DNA of 64,000 nucleotides from Neodothiora populina (GCF_041146345.1 NW_027191417.1:1674001-1738000); one strand, 5' to 3'. Shown: positions 1,882 through 23,154, numbered from the stretch's first letter. Notes: generated by a model from the letters alone, not told the origin. Numbers and translations: made by a program.

Positions 1882-4800
1882 GTGGCATAGAGGGCCGACA
1901 TTTATTCGCGATTAAAAGCATGCATAACCCTGCGTCCAGCGCTTTCCCCTAGAGTCTTTGTCCGTTAGATTGGTGCTTCATTGCACTTGAAGTACTATAC
2001 CTGGGCGAGGAGAGTATCCATTATTTTCCCTTTACACGTTAGTAGCTACAGCGGTGCCTTCCCACACGAATTGGACATATCTTTCATTTCCGGTGTGGAA
2101 TAATTTTTGTCTCCACGAGCGACTGATCTACTGTATGTCGGTTTACTTTCTTATGAAAGGAACACGCTAACGTCCCATACCTACATACTCGCGCGCGTCT
2201 GCGAAGGTAAGCGCTGGCAGTACCGAGCATCGACTGCAGGATGCAAATCGACACGCATCAACTACACGTGTCAACCCAGTGTTTTGGAATGTGAGGCGTT
2301 GAGGTCCCGGCTCATGCAGTGGTGCGTATGTATAAGCACACCTTAAACCCAGTATCTCGCAGACTGAGCACGGGAAACAGAAAAGCGAAAGTAACGGGGG
2401 TCAGAGGGGTGTTCGCCCCGCATCTCTATTTGGTTTGAAGCTGTCTCGCAAGCAGTCATGCATGCGAGAGTAAGGAGTCTGATGCATGCCATATAGCGCA
2501 CGCTGCAGCCAGCTCTTATATTACTCATAGCAGCAGCAGCAGCAGCATCATCATTTTTCCCTCGGGACAAGGTGTCGGTCAGGAATTTGTAATAAGAACC
2601 ACCGTGGCCAGATTTGCTGGTTTTGTGACAAATCACTGGGTTGTTTGCTCCCTTGTCGCAACTCCCACCTCGCATGGTTTCTGGTCTTCCGACTTTTCTG
2701 CTCCAGTTCTCCGGGTGAGCAGACCTCACATACCTATGTAAGGAGCGGCTATTTGTGACTCATGCATGGTCCTCTATGGCTCGCTTACTGCATTTGATCT
2801 TTCAGACATATGTGATCCATGCCATTACGGTTTATGTCGCAGGACGCAGAATGCAGGTCGCAAAATACGGAGATTTATTTTCCTCTTCATCGTCCTCGCA
2901 AAGATCATCGGGATTGCTATCTTCCGATTACGCTCGGCTGCATACCGTAAACCACGAACACGAGTCTTCAGTAGCTTGTTGCCCTTCAGGAGCCACTGTT
3001 CAGGAGTACACAGTTGTTTTAAGCGGTGTGACAGCAAGCTGTGATGCATACTGAACATGGCTGCTCCATGTTAGAACGCAGCGCTCTCGCAGAGTTGGAG
3101 TTCAGGCCGCCTATGACGAGGTCCGTCTTTCGGTCTCGGCGGTCGCGAGTTGAGTGTATTTCAGTGAGAAGCGGAGGGCGTTACCGCCTCCGTTTGGTGT
3201 TATGGTACCGTCCACTTGGTTAGATTACAGCCGTGGCATACCTGGGTCGTTGGTTTCTCTCGTTAATTCGAGACTTGACAGGCCATTAGTGGTGGTAGCG
3301 CGAAGCGTGGCATGCTTGCATTCCATTTCTATGATTCTACGGCTGTGGCGCTTCCAAGCGAACACAAAGACTACCTAGGTACAGTACCTACTTGTCTACA
3401 CGTCTACACGTGCAAGGGGTACCTTAGATAGTGACTAGTCGTCGAGATACTTGTACAATACCTACTCAGCCCTTGTGCCTTGTCATTATGGCTTTAGCAT
3501 GTGGCAGCAGAGATAAGATTCCGTAGTGCTCCTTCGCGTTGGTGAGGGGGGGCCGACTGCTGCAAGGCACTGTGTCCGTTCAATCTTACCCTTGCCCGAG
3601 ATGAGATCCACACGATGCCCTCGAGAGAGATAAGAAAATAGATGGCAGGAAATAGTGAGGAAGGAGCGCACATGAGATACGAGAGGTGAGCTAAGCGACC
3701 TTCCTCACATATTGGTAGCGTCATCGACTCCGCACATACCTTACCTTACTGTTCGGACGACCTCCGTTGACAAATGATACAGGGTTTGCAGAACCCCATG
3801 TCGGAGCAGGCATAATCGATGTCGTTAAGAAGTCCCATCATCAGCCATCTTTTTCACACATGCTAGAGAGCAGCCAGAGTTCTCGCGAACAGAGTTGCGA
3901 GGTCCCAAAGCCATGGTTCGGAATGACCGCCGTCGCCTGTTGAGAACAGAGTCGCTTCGAGCTGGTGAGACCGAGCTGCCGCGGTGAGGGGTACATTGAA
4001 AGTGGGCGACTGACCCAGCACTCGGAGACCTCGGAAGGCTTTGATTGTCTAGAAAGAAGACATGGGGGACGCCATCCCAGGCTCGCCAGGGTATATGATT
4101 ATCGAACACTGTGTCGACAAAGTGGGAATAATCGGACCAGTAAGCGGGAGGCGCCCGTATATGGTACTCGTACCGCATTAAACAGTAACAAGGCTTGTTT
4201 AAAGCCGGCTTACCATGAACAGCGACGCCATTTTGGATCTCATTCGCCACGCGCGAAGGCATGGATGGGATCGCTGGCTTCCTCGTGCTGCCTGCGAGTC
4301 GCTGCCTGCCGTTAACCGTCCGTCGTGACCCTGACGTCTGCCGATGCCCAAGGGATCCTTTATGCAACCCATGAGTACGGAGTACCTTGCACAACTCGTG
4401 ATTCTCCGATTACATGACCAGTTCCACTTCAATTTGCTTTGACACCACGCACTAGATGTACGTCAACTGTACACCTTCGATTCGTGATGAGCAATAGCGT
4501 CTAGCGCAAGCTGCCGTGAAACTCTCTGTGTTTAACGTTCGAGTCACGATCATCTTACTTCGACTTTGACTTTGACAACTTCTATAAGCACAGTGAAGCT
4601 TAAATCGAGATATGAACGCGAGATTTAAGATTCATGGTAAATAGTGCTGCCCACATTTCTTCCCTTAAAAGTGCAACATCGGTGCCAATCGAGCTAAGCA
4701 TCAAGATCATACAGAGATTACGAGATCTGAGACTACTGCACGCGCGAAGCCGTTCACAATACGGCAGTTGTTTATTTCCTTGTCTCGCGTTCATTCGCTG

Positions 4801-15139: not shown

Positions 15140-16685
15140 GTATCTTGCCTACTTCATCCTGCAGGGACGGACGGTGTCTGCATGGCTCGTGGTTCATGAA
15201 TCGCGTCGTGTGTGAAGTTTGTGGAAATAGTCGTGAGCGTGTTTCTGTGTGTGCTCTTCTTGCCGGTGTAAGTATGTGTAGGTACGTACGTGCTTTGTAG
15301 ACCTTCCTGTTCTGATACCACAGTCATTTAGCGTGGGTATAGTGGGATGAGCGGTGGATCCATCGTCCTACAGTAAAGTACTCGGAGCTGTCGATGTCGG
15401 ATGTCCGCTAGGAAGGATCGAGATTGCGGAACAGAGTGCAAGTACGTCTGGTGCAATTTGTGGTTGTTTCCAGTGTGCGAGCACTGGCAGTATTTCATGC
15501 ACAAGCGTGTCTATGCTGGCAGAGAGACGGATAGGTATCGTTCGTTCAGTCTCCCCCTCTCTTCGACCTCGCACTCGAGGTCGAGGGTCAGCTCACCTGC
15601 AGGACTTGAAGTCAATCGTAGAAACAAGGCAATTACACCCTCTACTCCGGGGAAAGGGTTTGGTATAGGACTCGAACATGAATGATTCGGTGCTGCATGG
15701 CTTCTCCATGCATCGGTCAGTGTTGTAGTAGCTATCCTTGCTTGATTTTGACATGAGGGGGGAGGGATTGAGCATGGAGAATATACCTGTATCTACTTTT
15801 AGCAAGGTGCAGAAGAGCTCACGCTGCTCGAGTAAGGGACATTCCGGTTTCATCATAATGAAGTCCTATGCGATAGCCAGAGTTTCCCCTGTCGAGCAGT
15901 TAACAGTGAAACAAAAGCTACTGGATATCCCGAAATCAGCACTATGAGATGTCGTCCCGACGCATTCCAGAGAACATATCCACCAAGAGTGTCCAGACGC
16001 TTGCATAGATGACCTATATAGTGCGATAATCCGAAAGGCATCGTGGCACAGGCATTATGTTTGACAGGAATTGCAGAGAGATAATTCACGCCGATACATA
16101 TTCTGGAACATATATGCATGCGAGGGATGGAAGCTGGGCGACCCTGTCCCTCGATTCGCACGATACTGACTTTGGACACGAGATGTCTGGAGAATATCAA
16201 CAAGCAGTATACCGTGTAGTGACACTCGACTACTATCTTTGTGAGCTGAAGACTTCGATGGAGTTGAGAGTAAGGCTTCGGCTCTTATGGATGTTTGTCC
16301 AGGTCCATCAGAAGAAAAGTACAGTAGATTCTGGTGCTCCTTTAACTGTTGTGGTATATTCATTCATCAAGGTTCATGTCATATACGGCTAACAACATGC
16401 ACATACATGCTAACACATACACAAGTATCGAATGCACAAAGAAACAGCCTACATATATGAGCAACAACTAAAGCACGGGGACTTGTCGTGTTTCTAGGAA
16501 CAATTACAAATGGATCATGTCGAGTGGAAGAACAGGAATAACATTATCATTTACCTAAACCAAAAGCCACGTCCTTCCCTGCACATATGCTCCCTGTCAG
16601 AGAACAAAAGACACTGCGAATGATGTTAGCATATGCACCCCTTGCACATGTATCTGACGGTTTGACTGGAGAAGAAAGGGCAAAA

Positions 16686-16785
16686 AGTGTCAGGTTAAAG
16701 CCTTGTCACAGGCTGATTTCGTCAATGTCCAACTTGTGGCTACGTTGACCGTCGTGAGATGATTGAAAATTGTTCATCATTTGAA
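16686..16785 (-). ncRNA. snR73: Box C/D snoRNA snR73 ortholog
   Basis: C box ATGATGA at 16780-16774. Guide TCTCACGACGGTC pairs with LSU GACCGUCGUGAGA (yeast Cm2959). It has a TGTGACA element and a D box CTGA at 16693-16690. Confidence 0.9.
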
Positions 16786-16942
16786 GCGTGCATGAGAAGA
16801 AATGGAAAAGGGGTGGGCTTACCATTAGGTGCAGATCAGACATGGAACATAGCCTGAAGTCAAGGTGGTGAAGGAAAAACTGTGAATCGGGTCAGCGACG
16901 TGGTCACAACCAATTTGCGTGCAGAGCATCAATTAATTGATG

Positions 16943-17029
16943 TCAATCAGACAAAACACTCTCGTCTTATCCACCGGTCAAGGTGGTCGGACATATGCTT
17001 GTCATTGGTATATTTATATCATCATGAAG
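16943..17029 (-). ncRNA. snR74: Box C/D snoRNA snR74 ortholog
   Basis: C box ATGATGA at 17025-17019. Guide GACAAGCATATG before D' CCGA pairs with SSU CAUAUGCUUGUC (Am28). The RNA ends TTTTGT-CTGA, with the D box at 16950-16947. Confidence 0.92.
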
Positions 17030-17207
17030 AGTAAAGGCAGAAGGGAAGAGGAAACTCCATACCATTTCAGTAATTATATACACTGGCTAAGGGATCACCC
17101 ACATCACCAGTATAGAAAAGACGTTGTTGCTCTCGAGATAATCCTACAATAACTGTAAGCTTCATGCATACTCGAAAGATCAACGATAGAAAGTAGTGCA
17201 ACAGAGA

Positions 17208-17298
17208 ATATCAGTTAGGCATGAATGGTTAAAAAAAAAGATTGTGTCGGCATCGCTAACGCGGATACGACTCGTCATCTAAAGGGTTCATCATAAAA
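17208..17298 (-). ncRNA. snR75: Box C/D snoRNA snR75 ortholog
   Basis: C box ATGATGA at 17294-17288. Guide TTAGATGACGAG pairs with LSU CUCGUCAUCUAA (yeast Gm2288). A second element ACCATTCATGC matches yeast snR75, and the D box CTGA is at 17214-17211. Confidence 0.92.
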
Positions 17299-17612
17299 AA
17301 AGGAGAAAGCATGTGCAAACAATTTTAGCTTACCATTTGAGATGCCGTGCCCGCGCTTGCCAGCTAGTGAGCTGAATAGCAAGACGAAGATGCGAGCACA
17401 ACTGCGTCAAGTGACGGCCGGTTGAAGGCCATCAAGCAATTCAATGGACGCAAATAGAGGTAACACGCTGTTCGTATGCACCTTGCAGGACCAGGGTGTC
17501 CGTTCGCATGCTTACATGGACAAAATGACGATTGCCGTTCCATACTGAATCCAATTCACGTCAGCTTTGGCCCAAAATAGGTCAATAGCAAAAGGTAGTG
17601 GTAAGATTGAGG

Positions 17613-17705
17613 TAATCAGTGGACGAGGTTTTCTAGGCCTGTCACAAAATAGGCATATCGGCTCATGTGGTTTGTGTCGGAGCCCAGTGCCGTTTCATCA
17701 CAAGA
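17613..17705 (-). ncRNA. snR76: Box C/D snoRNA snR76 ortholog
   Basis: C box GTGATGA at 17701-17695. Guide GCACTGGGC before D' CCGA pairs with LSU GCCCAGUGC (yeast Cm2197). It has the CTAGAAAA element I recall from yeast snR76 and a D box CTGA at 17619-17616. Confidence 0.9.
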
Positions 17706-17805
17706 AGGAAAGATGATGGACGAGTGTGGTCTGCATACCTATTCTAGCTATTAGTCAAGGCCCAAAAGATGAATTGAGCAGTAAAAATAGTGATGCGAAT
17801 AGTAA

Positions 17806-17896
17806 AGATCAGAAATAGCCATTTGATATCGCCAGCGATCCGAGGATCTCGGTCGGTAATTTCCAGCGTATATAATACACAATTGTTCATCCTCAG
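17806..17896 (-). ncRNA. snR77: Box C/D snoRNA snR77 ortholog
   Basis: C box AGGATGA. Guide GCTGGA(A)ATTACCG before D' CCGA pairs with SSU CGGUAAUUCCAGC, and the +5 rule gives the yeast Um578 equivalent. The RNA ends GGCTATTT-CTGA. Confidence 0.88.
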
Positions 17897-18220
17897 AAGG
17901 GGGTAGTGGGCTGAATAGTAGATGCAGTGTACGCGTACCTTTATGATGTTGTCTCAGGGCAAGCCAGCGACATATGCGGTTGCCATGAGCAAGTGGTTCT
18001 AGCTGTTGACCTAACAAAAGGCACAGCATTCACATGATGAACACAAATGAGTGGAGAAGCGAGCTGCACTTTGAGTGAAGACTCGAGTCGACATGGATTC
18101 TCATCCCCACAACGTTCCAACTCTTAGATGAAGCCAAGCTTTGCTCTGATCTGATGAAGACTCTGTCAGTAAATACTCAAGCCTTGGTCGAGTGAACAGT
18201 GACGAGCAACATATATCGAG

Positions 18221-18313
18221 CATCGATCAGACTGACGTGCTTGCAAATGCGTTTCAGTTCTCCAATGGAGATCAAAGACTCTAGTTTATGCGGTATACAA
18301 AATCATCGTGATG
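18221..18313 (-). ncRNA. snR78: Box C/D snoRNA, snR78 ortholog that also carries the snR72 guide
   Basis: C-like box ACGATGA. The D' guide AAACTAGAGTC before TTGA pairs with LSU GACUCUAGUUU (yeast Um2421). The D guide GCACGTCAG-T-CTGA pairs with LSU CUGACGUGC (yeast Am876, the snR72 target). Terminal stem CATC/GATG. Confidence 0.9.
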
Positions 18314-19110
18314 TTGTGTGGGAGGACAGGGCAGGCAAGTGAATTGCGAGCGGAGACGTGAGGAACTTACGAATTGATCAGGCGACCACACCATTGCCAT
18401 GCAGGGCTTATGCGAGATTTTTCAGTCGCGCCTGTTGATGGACAATGGTGTGTTGATGATGTTGAGGAAAAGTTGCAGCTGAATTTTGTATGCAAGCGTT
18501 GCGGGTCGGGCCCAAGCTTTCAGGCTTAGTCATCCTCGGCAGTGCCGCGCTAGGCCGTTATGAGGAAGCCTCATCGAGGCGTGTATAAATGATGTTGCCA
18601 CACGAAGCGACCACTTTTGACTGAAGTTTGTGAGATTGTCTTTCGTGGTCATTGCTGTACTATCATGCGGTAGTCATGTAAATAAATGCGCTTTTCTCTT
18701 CCATTATTTAGTTCTAATGGCCGCGTCGCCAGGGCCATGCATGAGTTATCATATGCTCATTGGTCAAATATGTTTTCACTGTACCAATTCCCGACAACGC
18801 CCAAGTGCTATCTTGTGGCAGGTAAGAGTATTAAGCAGATCGATAGAACAAGCGACACCAAACAATGCTGGTCATCGACCTTGGCAGGTTTGTCGAATGA
18901 ATAAACAATGATAAAAGACACGGATAAGTGATAGTAATAAAGGGCTTCAGCGTCCCGAAGACTTGCCAATATCTAGATGGAAAGCTTGAAATAATGGCTT
19001 GACTGGATACAAAGCGACTAGATTATTGGGGAATGACCCAGCAGGAAACATATATGCAGGGCCCAAGTCGATGGGTGAAAGAAGCAGAACAAGCGGGCGA
19101 GTCGGACAGT

Positions 19111-20610
19111 CTAGTTTAATTTCACATAATTACCTGGGTAGATGTTAGATCAACAATGCCATGATCAGCAGAAGAAAACTCACCTGGGAATTGTCCCGAC
19201 CTTCCGGCAATCTTGCCCGTCCACCATTCGTTGTCATTGCTCGTTCTTTGGATGATTTCAATAACATCACCAGCGCTGAAGCTCAGATCTCCCTCGGCCT
19301 GGGCTTCGTAGTCATACAAGGCAGTGACAGTCTCGGCCTGAGGCACGCCGCTGAATCTGCTGGGTTTCTTGGGGGGTGGCGGAGCGGCCTTTGCCTTGGC
19401 AGCTGCTGCGAGACCGCTGTTCTGCGGACTTATAACGCTAGGCGCAGTGTAGGGCGGCGGAGGGTTGTCGTAGCTATCCCGTAGAGGACTCGATGCGCCA
19501 GTGCCAGTGCCAGCAGCCTCGGAGGCCTTGGTGGCGTATTTGTTCTCGCCGTACTTGCTCGTTCCCGGGCCGAGTGCGAGCTTGCCGCCAGGGGTCTTGC
19601 CCAAACCCTTGGTCTTGAAATGGACGATTGTCAAAGCCTCGGCCTTCTCTTGAATGCCCTCACGTTTCTTCTCGAAGGCGCCCTCGATGTCGAGGGTGAG
19701 ATCAAAGTATCCAATGTCGATGCTCTGCATCTTCTCGTGCAAAGTGTAGAAGACGTTCAGCTGCATGTAGTAGAAGCTCTGGAACAGGGGGATGATGAAC
19801 TCGCGCTCGAGACGGAAAAGCTCCGGGAGCTCGTTCTTAAGGAGATCGTTGAAGTGCTCGTATTCCTGTGTGGCAACATCGACGTCGTTCTCGGCCTTGT
19901 ACAGAGCTTTTTCGTCCTTGAGCGACTTGTCTTTCTTGTCCTGCAGCTTCTTGAGCGAGGCTCGGTGCCGGTCGTAGTCGAGCTGCTTGTGGTCGCGCTT
20001 GGTAGCCATTTTACGGACTTGCTTGATGATGACCAATAGCTCATCTGCGGGACGGACGACACGGTTCTCGATCATCTCGAGCTCTGGCTGTAGGGCGGCT
20101 TTGAGGTCGCGCACAATGGCTTCGTACTCTTCGCAGGCGCGGATACCTTCCGGATTGCCATCGACGACGTACGAGTCCGGATCGGACATGCGGCCAGATA
20201 TGGGCTTGTAGATCTCGGCGCAGGCCTTTGAGAACTCGATCTGATGGTCGAGCATGCCATTGATCGAGGTGAAGTATCTGCGGAAAGGTGAGCTTTTTCT
20301 CTCTGGATTTCTGGCCAAGGGCGGCGGACTTTTGAGATTCATCGTGCAGCTTCTTTGTCTCGACCTCCAACTCTTGGAAGCGACGCTCGGCGTCGACGTA
20401 GACGGCATCTTTGGTGATTTCTCCCTGCGATCAACGCGTCAACAGGCGAAGGAGAGAGTGAGAAAGAGAGGGGGGCAGTACCATGTTAAACCTCTGCTTG
20501 AATGTTTGCGGTGCCTAGAACGAGTGAGTCAGTCGAATGCTCTCCATCCGAGGAGGTGTCGTCGCAAGTCATACCCGCACAACACTCTTGGAGAAGCCCT
20601 TCCAACTCAT
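19111..20610 (-). CDS. RVS167: Amphiphysin-like N-BAR + SH3 protein Rvs167/Hob1
   Basis: Introns 20574-20515, 20481-20425, 20329-20278 and 19183-19134. The spliced N-terminus is [43 protein letters not shown]. The C-terminal SH3 reads [15 protein letters not shown]...WWTG...[11 protein letters not shown]. Confidence 0.95.
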
Positions 20611-21531
20611 TGTGACGGCTCAATGCGGTTCAAGCCGTCGAGGCGCGTGGAAGTCGAGGGCTATGACTGTGGGTGTGTTTGTGTGTAGATGTGCTCTGCT
20701 GCGGGAGCAATGGCAAAGAATCAAAAGAAAATCAAGGGCAAGATGCGAAGCAAGATGTGATGTTGCGGGTTGGAATGTGCAGTAAAGTTAGGTAGGTTTA
20801 TGGGGCGGAGTCTATGTTATCTTGGCTCAGGTTCAGGTATCTGTTATGCGTTTTGGGTTATGACGATGATGTGTAGGATCGACTCGGCGCAGACTGGAGA
20901 CTGGGCGTTGCTGAGGCAGGCAGCGACTACAAGTATGACTATGACTATGACTACCTTAGGTAGGTATAGTGAAAGACTATCCGGCGGAACACACATTACT
21001 TTCATGCCGTATGTGCCTCGAATTGGCACCTATTGATATTAATATTTGCAGTTGATGCCCGTCTTCCGGGATGTCTTGGCTGCCGTTTGTTAAGGTAAAC
21101 TGACACAGGCAAGGTATGGTGGGCTGTCTGACTTGGCATCACGTCATATCACTCGTCCATTCCTTTCTCTAACAGCTTTATCCTCCTGTCTTTTGTCTCT
21201 GGCAGTACTGTAATTAGTGCACAGGTGAAATAGACAGCAAGATGAACCGAAAACGGCGACTCGGAGACCGACGGACGGAAGGTCAAAGTCCGAAGTTCCT
21301 GTAGTACTTGTATCCACCTACCCAATGAAGTAGTCAGGTAATGATGCGCGGTGCGTAATGGAAAGCTGAAGCAAAGCCTCGTCGCCCAAAGTAGCTTAGC
21401 AGCAAAGCGCAATTGTCAGGGAACTGTGGAAGCTTACCTTATCTGGGCCTGTCTGTCTGCAACTACTCGTACAAAGCATATTGTTTTGTCGCCTTCTTCA
21501 CATCTATCCTGGATTTTGTTCATCAAATACC

Positions 21532-21574
<43 letters not shown>

Positions 21575-21575
21575 C
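21532..21575. repeat. (ACA/CAA)n microsatellite just upstream of the NFS1 start codon
   Basis: About 14 perfect ACA units ending 13 nt before ATG 21589. Confidence 0.95.
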
Positions 21576-21588
21576 GACATCCACCAAA

Positions 21589-23154
21589 ATGTCACAGAGT
21601 GTGTCTTCGGTGGCGAGGCAGGCCCTCCGCCACTCATCCAGACGTCTCTCAACCACAAATGCATGGGCACACCCGGCACACCAGGCACACCAGGCACACC
21701 AGGCACCCAGGCTCGCCGCCACCTCGCGCTTCGCCGACCGCAGGACCTATGTCAGCGAGAGCAGCTCCAAGAATGCCTCTGTCAGTGTCGAGTCGACCAT
21801 CAAGGCAGACCAGAAGGCTTTCCTCGCCGAGACCGGCATCAAGCCCAAGGACGCCACCATGCCCACCACCGGCATGAGCGCCGATGCCATGATGAGCCCT
21901 ACCGCCGGCATTCTCAAGCAGGCCACCATCATGGACGAGGGCAGCCGTCCCATCTATCTCGACATGCAGGCCACCACTCCCACCGACCCTCGTGTCTTGG
22001 ACGCCATGCTTCCATACTTCACCGGTCTCTACGGAAACCCCCACTCGCGCACCCACGCCTACGGTTGGGAGACGGACTCGGCCGTCGAGAAGGCCAGAGC
22101 CCACATCGCCGCACTCATCGGAGCCGACCCCAAAGAGATCATCTTCACCTCTGGCGCCACCGAGTCAAACAACATGAGCATCAAGGGAGTCGCTCGCTTC
22201 TTCAAGCGCAGCGGAAAGAAGAACCACATCATCACCTGCCAGACCGAGCACAAGTGTGTCCTCGACAGCTGCCGATACCTACAGGACGAGGGCTACGAAA
22301 TCACATATCTGCCCGTCCAGTCGGATGGACGCATCGACATGGCCGAGCTGGAGAAGGCCATGAAGCCCGAGACCATGCTTGTGTCTATCATGACCGTCAA
22401 CAACGAGATCGGAGTGGTGCAGCCAGTCGAGGAGATTGGAAAGCTGTGTCGCTCCAAGAAGATCTTCTTCCACACCGACGGCGCCCAAGCTGTGGGCAAG
22501 ATCCCTCTCGATGTCAACAAGATGAACATTGATCTTATGTCCATCTCTGGCCACAAGATATACGGTCCCAAGGGCATCGGTGCTTGCTACGTCAGGAGAC
22601 GACCGAGAGTCAGACTCGAGCCCATCATGTCCGGTGGCGGACAGGAGAGAGGTCTGAGGAGTGGAACCATTGCGCCGCCTCTTGTCATTGGATTCGGAGA
22701 GGCTGCCAGGATCTGCAAGGAGGAGATGGAGTACGACACCAAGCGCATCTCTGCGCTTTCCAAGCGTCTTGAAGACGGTCTCCTGTCCATGGAACACACG
22801 ACGCTCAACGGATCGCCCGAGCACCACTACCCTGGCTGCGTCAACGTTTCTTTCGCCTACGTCGAGGGAGAGTCGCTTCTCATGGCGCTCAAGGACATTG
22901 CTCTTTCCTCTGGATCTGCCTGCACCAGTGCGTCTCTCGAGCCTTCGTACGTGCTGCGCGCGCTCGGAAGCAGTGACGAGAGCGCACACTCCAGTATCCG
23001 ATTCGGCATCGGAAGGTTCACCACGGATGAGGAGATCGATTACGTGCTCAAGGCTGTGCAGGAGCGAGTGACGTTTTTGCGCGAGCTCAGTCCCCTGTGG
23101 GAGCTGGTGCAGGAGGGCGTCGATCTCAACACGATCGAGTGGAGCCAGCACTAA
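21589..23154 (+). CDS. NFS1: Mitochondrial cysteine desulfurase (IscS/Nfs1), intronless
   Basis: Motifs [29 protein letters not shown] (PLP lysine), [19 protein letters not shown] (catalytic Cys) and C-terminal WSQH. Arg/Ser-rich presequence from ATG 21589 in AAAATG context. Confidence 0.98.

Follow-up and report, generated by a model that had tools for sequence, protein, structure and literature searches.

A minus-strand locus with six box C/D snoRNA units

In the Neodothiora populina window, the whole 64-kb stretch of DNA that was analysed, we found six box C/D snoRNA units on the minus strand between 18370 and 16614, all six at the coordinates and on the strand given for them in the first-pass annotation. 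The order and strand proposed there are borne out by Rfam matches, by the register of the guides, by intron geometry and by an orthologous cluster (L230) whose order is identical, and this order of six snoRNAs on one strand is that of Pezizomycotina snoRNA cluster I. Every splice coordinate that had been named falls on a GT or an AG, and splice motifs at uniform distances around six of six units argue for the claimed layout of one snoRNA per predicted intron. A branch-like motif, also claimed for each intron, is present in all six with its A 12-16 nt from the intron end, those of intron 2 (ACTAAT) and intron 4 (GCTTAC) being off-consensus. The geometry is uniform throughout, with introns of 183-220 nt, C boxes starting at intron position 39-63 and a distance of 55-64 nt from D box to branch A.

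The predicted exon 1 (18371..18470) has its 3' end at 18371, as set by the GTAAGT 5' splice site at 18370, 18470 being an arbitrary bound of the ORF scan. For the promoter this leaves only the interval from 18371 up to 19122, where a BAR-SH3 ORF ends; a paper on snoRNA and ribosomal-protein co-regulation, in the part available to us, names a shared motif for neither A. fumigatus nor N. crassa. Intron 1 (18151..18370, 220 nt; GTAAGT, ACTGAC with branch A 18166, CAG) is followed by the non-coding exon 2 of 212 nt (17939..18150), which is delimited by splice motifs and is unconserved against the 67-nt L230 exon (z 1.3). Intron 2 (17739..17938, 200 nt; GTACGC, ACTAAT with branch A 17751, TAG) directly adjoins the next 5' splice site, and intron 3 (17545..17738, 194 nt; GTATGC, GCTGAC with branch A 17561, CAG) follows with no exon in between. 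A non-coding exon of 211 nt (17334..17544; z 1.2 against the 102-nt L230 exon) leads to intron 4 (17144..17333, 190 nt; GTAAGC, GCTTAC with branch A 17156, TAG), and two further non-coding exons of 81 nt (17063..17143) and 57 nt (16823..16879), both placed by splice motifs and unconserved against L230, enclose intron 5 (16880..17062, 183 nt; GTATGG, GCTGAC with branch A 16892, CAG). Intron 6 (16614..16822, 209 nt; GTAAGC, GCTAAC with branch A 16626, CAG) ends with the 3' splice site at 16614, after which the last exon (16400..16613) starts at 16613, its other end again being an arbitrary bound.

The D box is CTGA in all six units, and the C boxes of units 1 to 6 read ACGATGA, AGGATGA, GTGATGA and then ATGATGA three times, so that four of the six are canonical (RUGAUGA) and those of units 1 and 2 deviate at the U. 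From C to D the units span 83, 85, 86, 84, 79 and 91 nt, within the 70-100 nt expected of box C/D snoRNAs, and unit 1 is the only one with a flanking stem (4 bp). Exactly four matches in the whole window reach the Rfam gathering score, all of them within the cluster (E 1.2e-14 to 6.1e-3), and the curated threshold is passed by four of the six units (Afu_300, Afu_513/snR76, snR75 and snR73). The expected recovery by Infernal of the Rfam snR73-snR78 models therefore held in part: units 1 and 5 fail, and units 2 and 3 are found by A. fumigatus families rather than by snR77 and snR76. Unit 1 has no Rfam match at E<=10, and unit 5 matches only SNORD27, over the guide, at 28.6 bits against a threshold of 52 (E 0.064). 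Rfam searches at E<=10 returned no further snoRNAs in the two long exons or on the plus strand, and when every NTGA box was scanned for register, whatever matched outside the units was either rich in G-U pairs or limited to one rDNA. As a candidate for an additional snoRNA, the inverted C-box-like string at 18029-18043 was rejected, having no supporting guide, and short repeats in the locus are at about chance level.

Guides and predicted rRNA targets

Targets were read on two stand-in eukaryotic rDNAs (L133 and L121), neither of which looks like a close relative, rather than on the organism's own rRNA. The stand-ins come from metagenome contigs in which a standard 18S primer matched at 108 loci, 11 of them with at least 4.5 kb downstream of the match, and Rfam delimited two full units among these; a scan of viral contigs with the unit 6 guide gave 120 loci, none prominent in k-mer tests, and no rRNA in the five that were given to Rfam. 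On L133, seven guides stand in correct register at the sites known for yeast snR72-78; six of them do so on L121 as well, where the 12-mer of unit 4 is 9 nt. The guide's 3' end lies one base before the D or D' box (two bases in unit 6), and the fifth base upstream of the box faces A894, U2421, C2197, G2288 and C2957 of the L133 LSU and A28 and U568 of its SSU. Contiguous lengths on the stand-in rDNAs are 9, 9, 8 (plus 5 past a one-base bulge), 9 (plus one G-U), 12, 12 and 13 nt, and the earlier figure of 9-13 nt was thus nearly right, the one stretch of 8 contiguous nt being that of unit 2. Twelve-mers complementary to rRNA are in themselves not rare: counting both strands, the 64 kb contains 41 twelve-mer starts, and two of the five such sites in the cluster stretch fall outside any unit. 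We therefore give weight to register, box context and conservation rather than to complementarity by itself. We take A28, U578 and C2959 to be the yeast site numbers for the snR74-, snR77- and snR73-type units. For the others, the published material available to us gives the yeast sites as 876 for snR72, 2421 for snR78, 2288 for snR75 and 2197 for snR76.

Unit 1 (18227..18309; C ACGATGA, D' TTGA, D CTGA) had been read as a plain snR78, but its guide register and L230 ortholog identify it instead as a double guide of snR78/snR72 type. Its D' guide ACTAGAGTC faces the 2421-type U and its D guide GCACGTCAG the 876-type A of the stand-in LSU, both in exact +5 register on L133 and L121, and the unit 1 match ends at 9 nt in all four loci that hold that part of the LSU. 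According to the available text of the source papers, this double guide occurs in N. crassa (CD5), at the root of Pezizomycotina and in all Pezizomycotina (PMC2780460, PMC5824354). Since unit 1 fuses snR78 and snR72, all seven yeast guide functions are covered by six RNAs and nothing is "missing". Unit 2 (17807..17897; C AGGATGA, D' CCGA, D CTGA) is of snR77 type and matches Rfam Afu_300 at 84.4 bits (E 1.2e-14); its guide AAATTACCG faces the 578-type U of 18S, with extra pairing by ATATACGCT just downstream, and the duplex with L133 SSU 564-593 is calculated at -21.2 kcal/mol with a contiguous guide of just 8 bp. A U5 snRNA target has been predicted for N. crassa CD24, as far as the text at hand goes (Liu et al. 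2009, PMC2780460). The snR76-type unit 3 (17614..17705; C GTGATGA, D' CCGA, D CTGA) scores 70.7 bits with Afu_513 (E 1.6e-12) and 27.8 bits with snR76, under the threshold of 55 for the latter, and its guide GGCACTGGGC pairs with L133 LSU 2194-2203 and faces the 2197-type C. Another 9-mer of unit 3, complementary to L133 LSU 3298-3306, was discarded as a target: the match is absent from L121 and varies among relatives.

In the snR75-type unit 4 (17209..17296; C ATGATGA, D' CGTA, D CTGA; Rfam snR75 at 77.7 bits, E 4.4e-14), the guide TTAGATGACGAG faces the 2288-type G and CCATTCATGC is the extra-pairing element, the two pairing with L133 LSU 2285-2296 and 2307-2316; for yeast snR75, extra pairing is described as demonstrated experimentally in the sections available to us. 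Unit 5 (16947..17025; C ATGATGA, D' CCGA, D CTGA), of snR74/U27 type, carries the guide GACAAGCATATG, which faces A28 of 18S in a 12-nt Watson-Crick match, in register, to SSU 25-36 of both L133 and L121. Unit 6 (16688..16787; C ATGATGA, non-consensus D' CGTA, D CTGA) is of snR73/U35 type and passes the Rfam snR73 threshold of 37 with 39.6 bits; its guide TCTCACGACGGTC faces the 2959-type C, and the 13-nt match falls at L133 LSU 2955-2967 and L121 LSU 2924-2936. A conserved, unusual D' box is on record as typical of snR73 in the literature passages at hand. The conserved D-side segments of units 2, 3, 5 and 6 gave no convincing duplex with the stand-in rDNA, and those of units 5 and 6 form hairpins in which both strands have changed relative to L230 and yet the pairing is kept.

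Conservation, host RNA and related clusters

Conservation was assessed by comparison with one orthologous locus, L230, a cluster of the same six units with the same intron geometry. The snoRNA bodies are 65-78% identical with z 11.0-13.9 against shuffles in six of six cases (unit 1, 65/86, z 12.1; unit 2, 71/91, z 13.9; unit 3, z 11.0; unit 5, 58/79, z 11.8; unit 6, 69/92, z 11.9), whereas intron flanks (z -0.0 to 2.9) and exons (z -0.0 to 1.3) are at background. The guides are intact and conserved, as are the extra-pairing elements and the D boxes, and both units that are weak in Rfam, 1 and 5, are among the conserved ones (73-76% identity, z about 12), both guide/box segments of unit 1 being identical and the internal hairpin of unit 5 being kept by changes on both strands. 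Exon sizes are 67/52/102/92/307 nt in L230 versus 212/0/211/81/57 nt in N. populina, and a search for synteny within the 3-kb flanks gave no protein-level match. The longest ORF in the spliced model encodes 64 aa and another 59 aa. This low ORF content and the unconserved exons uphold the description of the host as non-coding, and the longest ORF matches in size those of the N. crassa hosts, which are given as 159-267 bp in the portion of that paper available to us (Liu et al. 2009, PMC2780460).

We are therefore highly confident that the locus represents, in its filamentous-ascomycete form, the conserved fungal "snoRNA cluster I", a multi-intron non-coding host on the minus strand, presumably transcribed by Pol II. 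Its only evident products are, in all likelihood, six box C/D snoRNAs, each from an intron of its own, that follow one another as snR78/72 - snR77 - snR76 - snR75 - snR74 - snR73. From the sequence we infer transcription, splicing, processing and methylation along the following lines: each intron would be spliced out and debranched, and exonucleases would then trim it to the snoRNP core assembled on the C/D boxes. Assembly is probably coupled to splicing, because the snoRNAs have no terminal stems and their distance upstream of the branch point is constant at 55-64 nt. The mature RNAs, predicted at about 80-95 nt, would direct 2'-O-methylation at seven rRNA positions, namely the equivalents of yeast A876, U2421, C2197, G2288 and C2959 in 25S and of A28 and U578 in 18S, and the extra pairing elements of the snR75- and snR77-type units may help target binding.

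Cluster I is known from Luo et al. 2013 (PMC3596301), Liu et al. 2009 (PMC2780460) and Canzler et al. 2018 (PMC5824354), each cited here from the part of it available to us. To this extent, the Pezizomycotina cluster shares with the N. populina locus the snoRNAs and their order, the layout, predicted in N. populina, of one per intron of a UHG-like non-coding host, short ORFs only, a first snoRNA that is a double guide (2421-type by D', 876-type by D), and exon loss that leads to juxtaposed introns; we see no difference of kind, only other exon sizes, a degenerate D' box in unit 4 and the position of the lost exon, which in N. populina sits between the snR77 and snR76 introns. The N. crassa homologues CD5-CD24-CD12-CD7-CD21-CD31 are described as all intronic, on chromosome VI (PMC2780460). 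In A. fumigatus, the account available to us lists a chromosome-4 cluster of Afu-40, Afu-188, Afu-300 and Afu-513 together with Afu-515 (Jochl et al. 2008, PMC2377427). Unit 2 scores 84 bits and unit 3 71 bits with the Rfam families derived from Afu-300 and Afu-513, respectively. All five snoRNAs of that cluster, these two included, were cloned as cDNA, and thus the A. fumigatus orthologues are expressed; the same text calls the RNAs intergenic and classes Afu-300 among the orphans, whereas in N. populina both the introns and an 18S target can be recognised. S. cerevisiae snR72-snR78 share guide functions (876, 2421, 2197, 2288) and the snR75 extra-pairing element, as far as the published descriptions at hand go, but are seven separate snoRNAs without introns and with snR72 at the 3' end, unlike the six intronic units of N. 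populina, the 5'-most of which combines snR72 and snR78. The animal hosts UHG and GAS5, a comparison that the N. crassa authors draw in the text available to us (PMC2780460), resemble the predicted host in being non-coding and spliced and in holding a single box C/D snoRNA in each intron, set at a constant distance from its branch point; their sequence and snoRNA content are unrelated, and the fungal introns are of about 200 nt.

The gene is thus ordinary, its intronic arrangement has already been described in filamentous fungi, and little in it is new. Those of the "unusual details" in the first-pass annotation that we could identify (the fused first snoRNA, the two introns with no exon between them and the degenerate D' boxes) are present but not unusual, all being published for the cluster in the literature available to us. 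The value lies mainly in annotation: ORF-based pipelines would leave such a 2-kb locus blank, and it is predicted to supply the guides for seven conserved rRNA methylations.

Alternative readings and the exon-less junction

Production of the RNAs in the S. cerevisiae mode, from an unspliced polycistronic precursor cut between units by an RNase III-type enzyme with the GT/AG motifs as relics, is how the corresponding yeast snoRNAs are reported to be processed, but we consider it very improbable here. An intron-less cluster of this type would have no splice signals around its units, whereas 5' splice site, branch and 3' splice site motifs flank six of six, at distances conserved between N. populina and L230; moreover, the accessible literature gives the intronic form for every Euascomycete examined, and for N. 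crassa the spliced transcripts of the hosts are stated to have been confirmed by RT-PCR (Liu et al. 2009, PMC2780460). That the host encodes a small protein or micropeptide, with the snoRNAs as passengers, could appeal to the 64- and 59-aa ORFs but is scarcely credible, as the exons are unconserved in length and sequence against L230 (z -0.0 to 1.3) and the ORF sizes resemble those reported for the non-coding N. crassa hosts. Decay of one or more units that no longer guide methylation is improbable: the candidates are units 1 and 2, whose C boxes (ACGATGA, AGGATGA) deviate at the U, and unit 4, whose D' box CGTA lacks the GA of CUGA, CTGA being kept at that box in L230 and in the Rfam consensus. 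Against this stands the intact and conserved state of guides, extra-pairing elements and D boxes, and yeast D' and C' boxes tolerate much divergence according to the published passages at hand. Methylation at the 2288-type site may be weakened, because the D' box of unit 4 is CGTA and not CTGA, and the unit raises the question whether an extra-pairing element compensates for a D' box without the GA dinucleotide.

At the junction of introns 2 and 3, the AG at 17740-17739 is followed immediately by GTATGC at 17738, and each intron has its own branch motif (17755 and 17565), a configuration of juxtaposed ("complex") introns or a zero-length exon. Exon loss leading to juxtaposed introns is published for the cluster, and for other clusters stepwise splicing and alternative acceptor use are both called compatible with the data, as far as the available text goes (Luo et al. 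2013, PMC3596301). The two introns are most likely removed by two successive splicing reactions through the AG|GT junction. A single intron of 394 nt (GT 17938 to AG 17545) that holds two snoRNAs, with the internal AG|GT unused and the RNAs parted by an endonuclease or an alternative acceptor, would agree with the off-consensus ACTAAT branch motif of intron 2 and with the statement, in that same partial text, that stepwise splicing and "one donor picking any of several acceptors" are inseparable for juxtaposed introns. We regard it as unlikely, since the internal junction has complete signals at the distances of the five ordinary introns (58 nt from D to branch A, 12 nt from branch A to AG), GTATGC stands 38 nt before the next C box as in ordinary introns, and the counterpart snoRNAs of L230 lie in two introns separated by an exon of 52 nt (17 nt with an alternative donor). 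Within the stepwise reading we put forward, as a tentative proposal somewhat short of even likelihood, that an obligate zero-nucleotide exon, represented by the AG|GT at 17739/17738, arose in this lineage after its split from that of L230, with introns 2 and 3 removed in fixed 5'-to-3' order. If so, the snR76-type RNA could be released only once the snR77-type intron had been excised, two methylation guides would be coupled in their output, and the locus would offer a compact fungal model of recursive splicing. Neither this junction nor the D' box of the snR75-type unit would surprise specialists in fungal snoRNAs, and a junction of snoRNA introns that has no exon lends itself naturally to a test of stepwise splicing, with the sole available relative keeping the exon.

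Six intronic box C/D snoRNAs and their host gene

Between 18800 and 16300 on the minus strand, reading revealed six units that each contain a C box and end in CTGA, and by this reading and a script the GT and AG around each unit lie exactly where the first-pass annotation had placed them. Its observation of six intronic C/D snoRNAs at 16614..18370 (here units 1 to 6 in transcript order, assigned to the snR78/72, snR77, snR76, snR75, snR74 and snR73 types) is confirmed. A scripted check gave intron lengths of 220, 200, 194, 190, 183 and 209 nt (n = 6), and the 5' splice sites of introns 1 to 6 read GTAAGT, GTACGC, GTATGC, GTAAGC, GTATGG and GTAAGC. Every intron carries a branch-like motif with its A 12-16 nt from the 3' end, the C box starts at intron position 39-63, the C-to-D span of the units is 79-91 nt and the distance from the D-box end to the branch A is 55-64 nt (6/6 introns). 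A flanking stem (4 bp) is present in unit 1 only, the other five units having none. Splicing-coupled snoRNP assembly has reportedly been linked to branch-point distance, and the constant distance, together with the absent terminal stems, fits such a mode of assembly as a prediction for this locus. That the distance to the 3' splice site matters is cited in the N. crassa paper (PMC2780460).

Across the whole 64 kb, Rfam at gathering score returned exactly four matches, all on the minus strand and within the locus (18370-16614): the A. fumigatus-derived family Afu_300 at unit 2 (84.4 bits), snR75 at unit 4 (77.7 bits), Afu_513, also A. fumigatus-derived, at unit 3 (70.7 bits) and snR73 at unit 6 (39.6 bits, threshold 37). 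Relaxing the cut-off to E<=10 over 15500-19500 matched the unit 5 guide to SNORD27 (28.6 bits versus a threshold of 52) and unit 3 to snR76 (27.8 versus 55), with zero matches to unit 1 in this interval. The family assignment that had been proposed as a check thus held for four of the six units, but failed for unit 1 (no match) and unit 5 (sub-threshold).

By analogy with N. crassa, in which spliced host RNAs were sequenced (PMC2780460), and with A. fumigatus, from which clones of five cluster snoRNAs were obtained (PMC2377427), we infer that a single precursor would be transcribed across the locus and that each intron would be spliced out, debranched and trimmed down to the snoRNP. Expression, splicing and methylation are predictions for this copy. 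The earlier interpretation as an intronic snoRNA host gene is supported, and its sequence marks the locus as an ordinary representative of a family of fungal snoRNA host genes that is already well described.

Conservation of the cluster in a second locus

The ortholog search probed genome contigs with 20 nt taken from unit 2 and yielded five loci. In one of these, L230, reading shows the complete set of six units, in unchanged order and each within a GT...AG intron; Afu_300, Afu_513 and snR75 reach Rfam gathering score there, and the intron geometry matches that of the window introns. Identity of the snoRNA bodies between the window and L230 is 76, 78, 65, 76, 73 and 75% for units 1 to 6 (z 11.0-13.9), the 65% of unit 3 being an underestimate, as the L230 boundary overran the D box by 9 nt. 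By contrast, intron flanks (z -0.0 to 2.9) and internal exons (z -0.0 to 1.3) are at background, and the internal exons measure 212, 0, 211, 81 and 57 nt in the window and 67, 52, 102, 92 and 307 nt in L230. The alignment shows that selection acts on the intronic RNAs, not on the exons. It also rescues the two units missed by Rfam: both guide/box segments of unit 1 are identical in L230, and in unit 5 the guide is kept and an internal hairpin is maintained through changes on both strands.

The other four loci were rejected as orthologous clusters, with L229 and L232 resembling protein-coding DNA of bacteria, and L231 and L233 resembling chance matches. The exact copies of the 20-nt unit 2 guide string in the bacterial contigs (L229:3001-3020 and L232:3001-3020) lie within what looks like one shared, conserved protein-coding motif, and are a coding-sequence coincidence and not a snoRNA. 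The complete fungal-type six-snoRNA intronic cluster of L230 (2667-4531, plus strand) lies in a record labelled as a 6.65-Mb bacterial MAG chromosome, suggesting that this record contains eukaryotic DNA or is mislabelled. In its snR76-type unit (L230:3245-3270, plus strand), the fifth base upstream of the D' box CCGA differs, being A in L230 and G in the window (guide segments GGCACTAGGCT and GGCACTGGGCT, respectively); the differing base should face the target C, and the mismatch may reflect either a different rRNA base in that fungus or an impaired guide.

Predicted rRNA targets

Since Rfam found no rDNA in the 64 kb, targets were read on stand-in rDNA. A viral-contig scan for stand-ins gave nothing usable; metagenome contigs scanned with a standard 18S primer yielded 108 loci, among them L133 and L121 with complete rRNA units, their limits set by Rfam. 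Neither is a close relative, and guide lengths from them are therefore lower bounds. Taking the L133 base that faces the fifth position upstream of the box, the unit 1 D' guide (ACTAGAGTC, then T and TTGA) faces LSU U2421 and its D guide (GCACGTCAG, T, CTGA) LSU A894, unit 2 (AAATTACCG, A, CCGA) faces SSU U568, unit 3 (GGCACTGGGC, T, CCGA) LSU C2197, unit 4 (TTAGATGACGAG, T, CGTA) LSU G2288, unit 5 (GACAAGCATATG, T, CCGA) SSU A28 and unit 6 (TCTCACGACGGTC, AA, CGTA) LSU C2957. In yeast numbering, the unit 2 and unit 6 sites correspond to U578 and C2959. The unit 2 guide forms 8 contiguous pairs, a one-base bulge and then 5 pairs with the stand-in SSU, with additional pairing of ATATACGCT directly downstream, and CCATTCATGC of unit 4 makes a second pairing at LSU 2307-2316. 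The unit 1 match ends at 9 nt in all four loci holding the relevant LSU part.

These predicted sites agree with the published functions of the snoRNAs. SnR75 guides 2288 and snR76 2197, extra pairing having been tested for both. SnR72 acts on 876 via D and snR78 on 2421 via D' (PMC5824354), while the N. crassa homologues are assigned to 18S Am28 (CD21), 18S Um575 (CD24), 26S Cm2917 (CD31), Cm2159 (CD12), Gm2250 (CD7) and Am856 plus Um2383 (CD5) (PMC2780460). By itself, rRNA complementarity is weak evidence; 41 twelve-mer starts in the window are complementary to L133 rRNA, and two of the five twelve-mer sites within the locus fall outside every unit.

Fused guide, abutting introns and predicted host transcript

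A separate snR72 unit is absent from the cluster, and unit 1, which covers both guide functions, is the fused snR78/72 double guide. This fusion is described for all Euascomycetes (PMC3596301), for CD5 of N. crassa (PMC2780460) and for the root of Pezizomycotina (PMC5824354). Introns 2 and 3 abut (AG 17739, GT 17738), and juxtaposition of introns by exon loss is likewise described for Euascomycetes, ESTs and RT-PCR from other clusters being compatible with 5'-to-3' stepwise splicing or alternative acceptor use (PMC3596301). Because L230, the one relative compared, still has an exon at this position, the loss appears specific to the window's lineage. D' and C' boxes are documented to diverge, and snR73 has a D' that is odd yet conserved. 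The D' box of unit 4 (17266-17269, minus strand) is CGTA, where the Rfam consensus for snR75 and the orthologous L230 unit both have CTGA, with guide and extra-pairing element intact, and is probably the one feature deserving the term copy-specific.

The longest ORF of the spliced host model, whose outer limits (start of exon 1, end of the last exon) were set arbitrarily, is 64 aa, a length within the range reported for N. crassa non-coding hosts (PMC2780460). The locus is neighboured by a BAR+SH3 ORF upstream on the same strand (amphiphysin/Rvs167-like; 19122-20408, minus strand) and by a class-V aminotransferase ORF (cysteine desulfurase-like; 21481-23154, plus strand), and no counterpart of either lies within 3 kb of the cluster in L230. 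In the host RNA, AATG stands right before GT at the end of the last three internal exons (17334-17337, 17063-17066 and 16823-16826, minus strand; CAAATG, GAAATG and CTAATG); an ATG end is seen for just one exon of L230. Inside the host gene, a motif of 15 nt (plus strand TAGTGAGCTGAATAG) is accompanied by two further copies with 80-93% identity, the three lying at 17365-17379 (exon) and at 17788-17802 and 17904-17918 (intron 2, either side of unit 2), a threefold occurrence that may be chance. Finally, 14 nt of exon 5 (17073-17086) are 93% complementary to the guide/extra-pairing segment of unit 2 (17863-17876), by rough estimate about the chance level for a 2.5-kb stretch.
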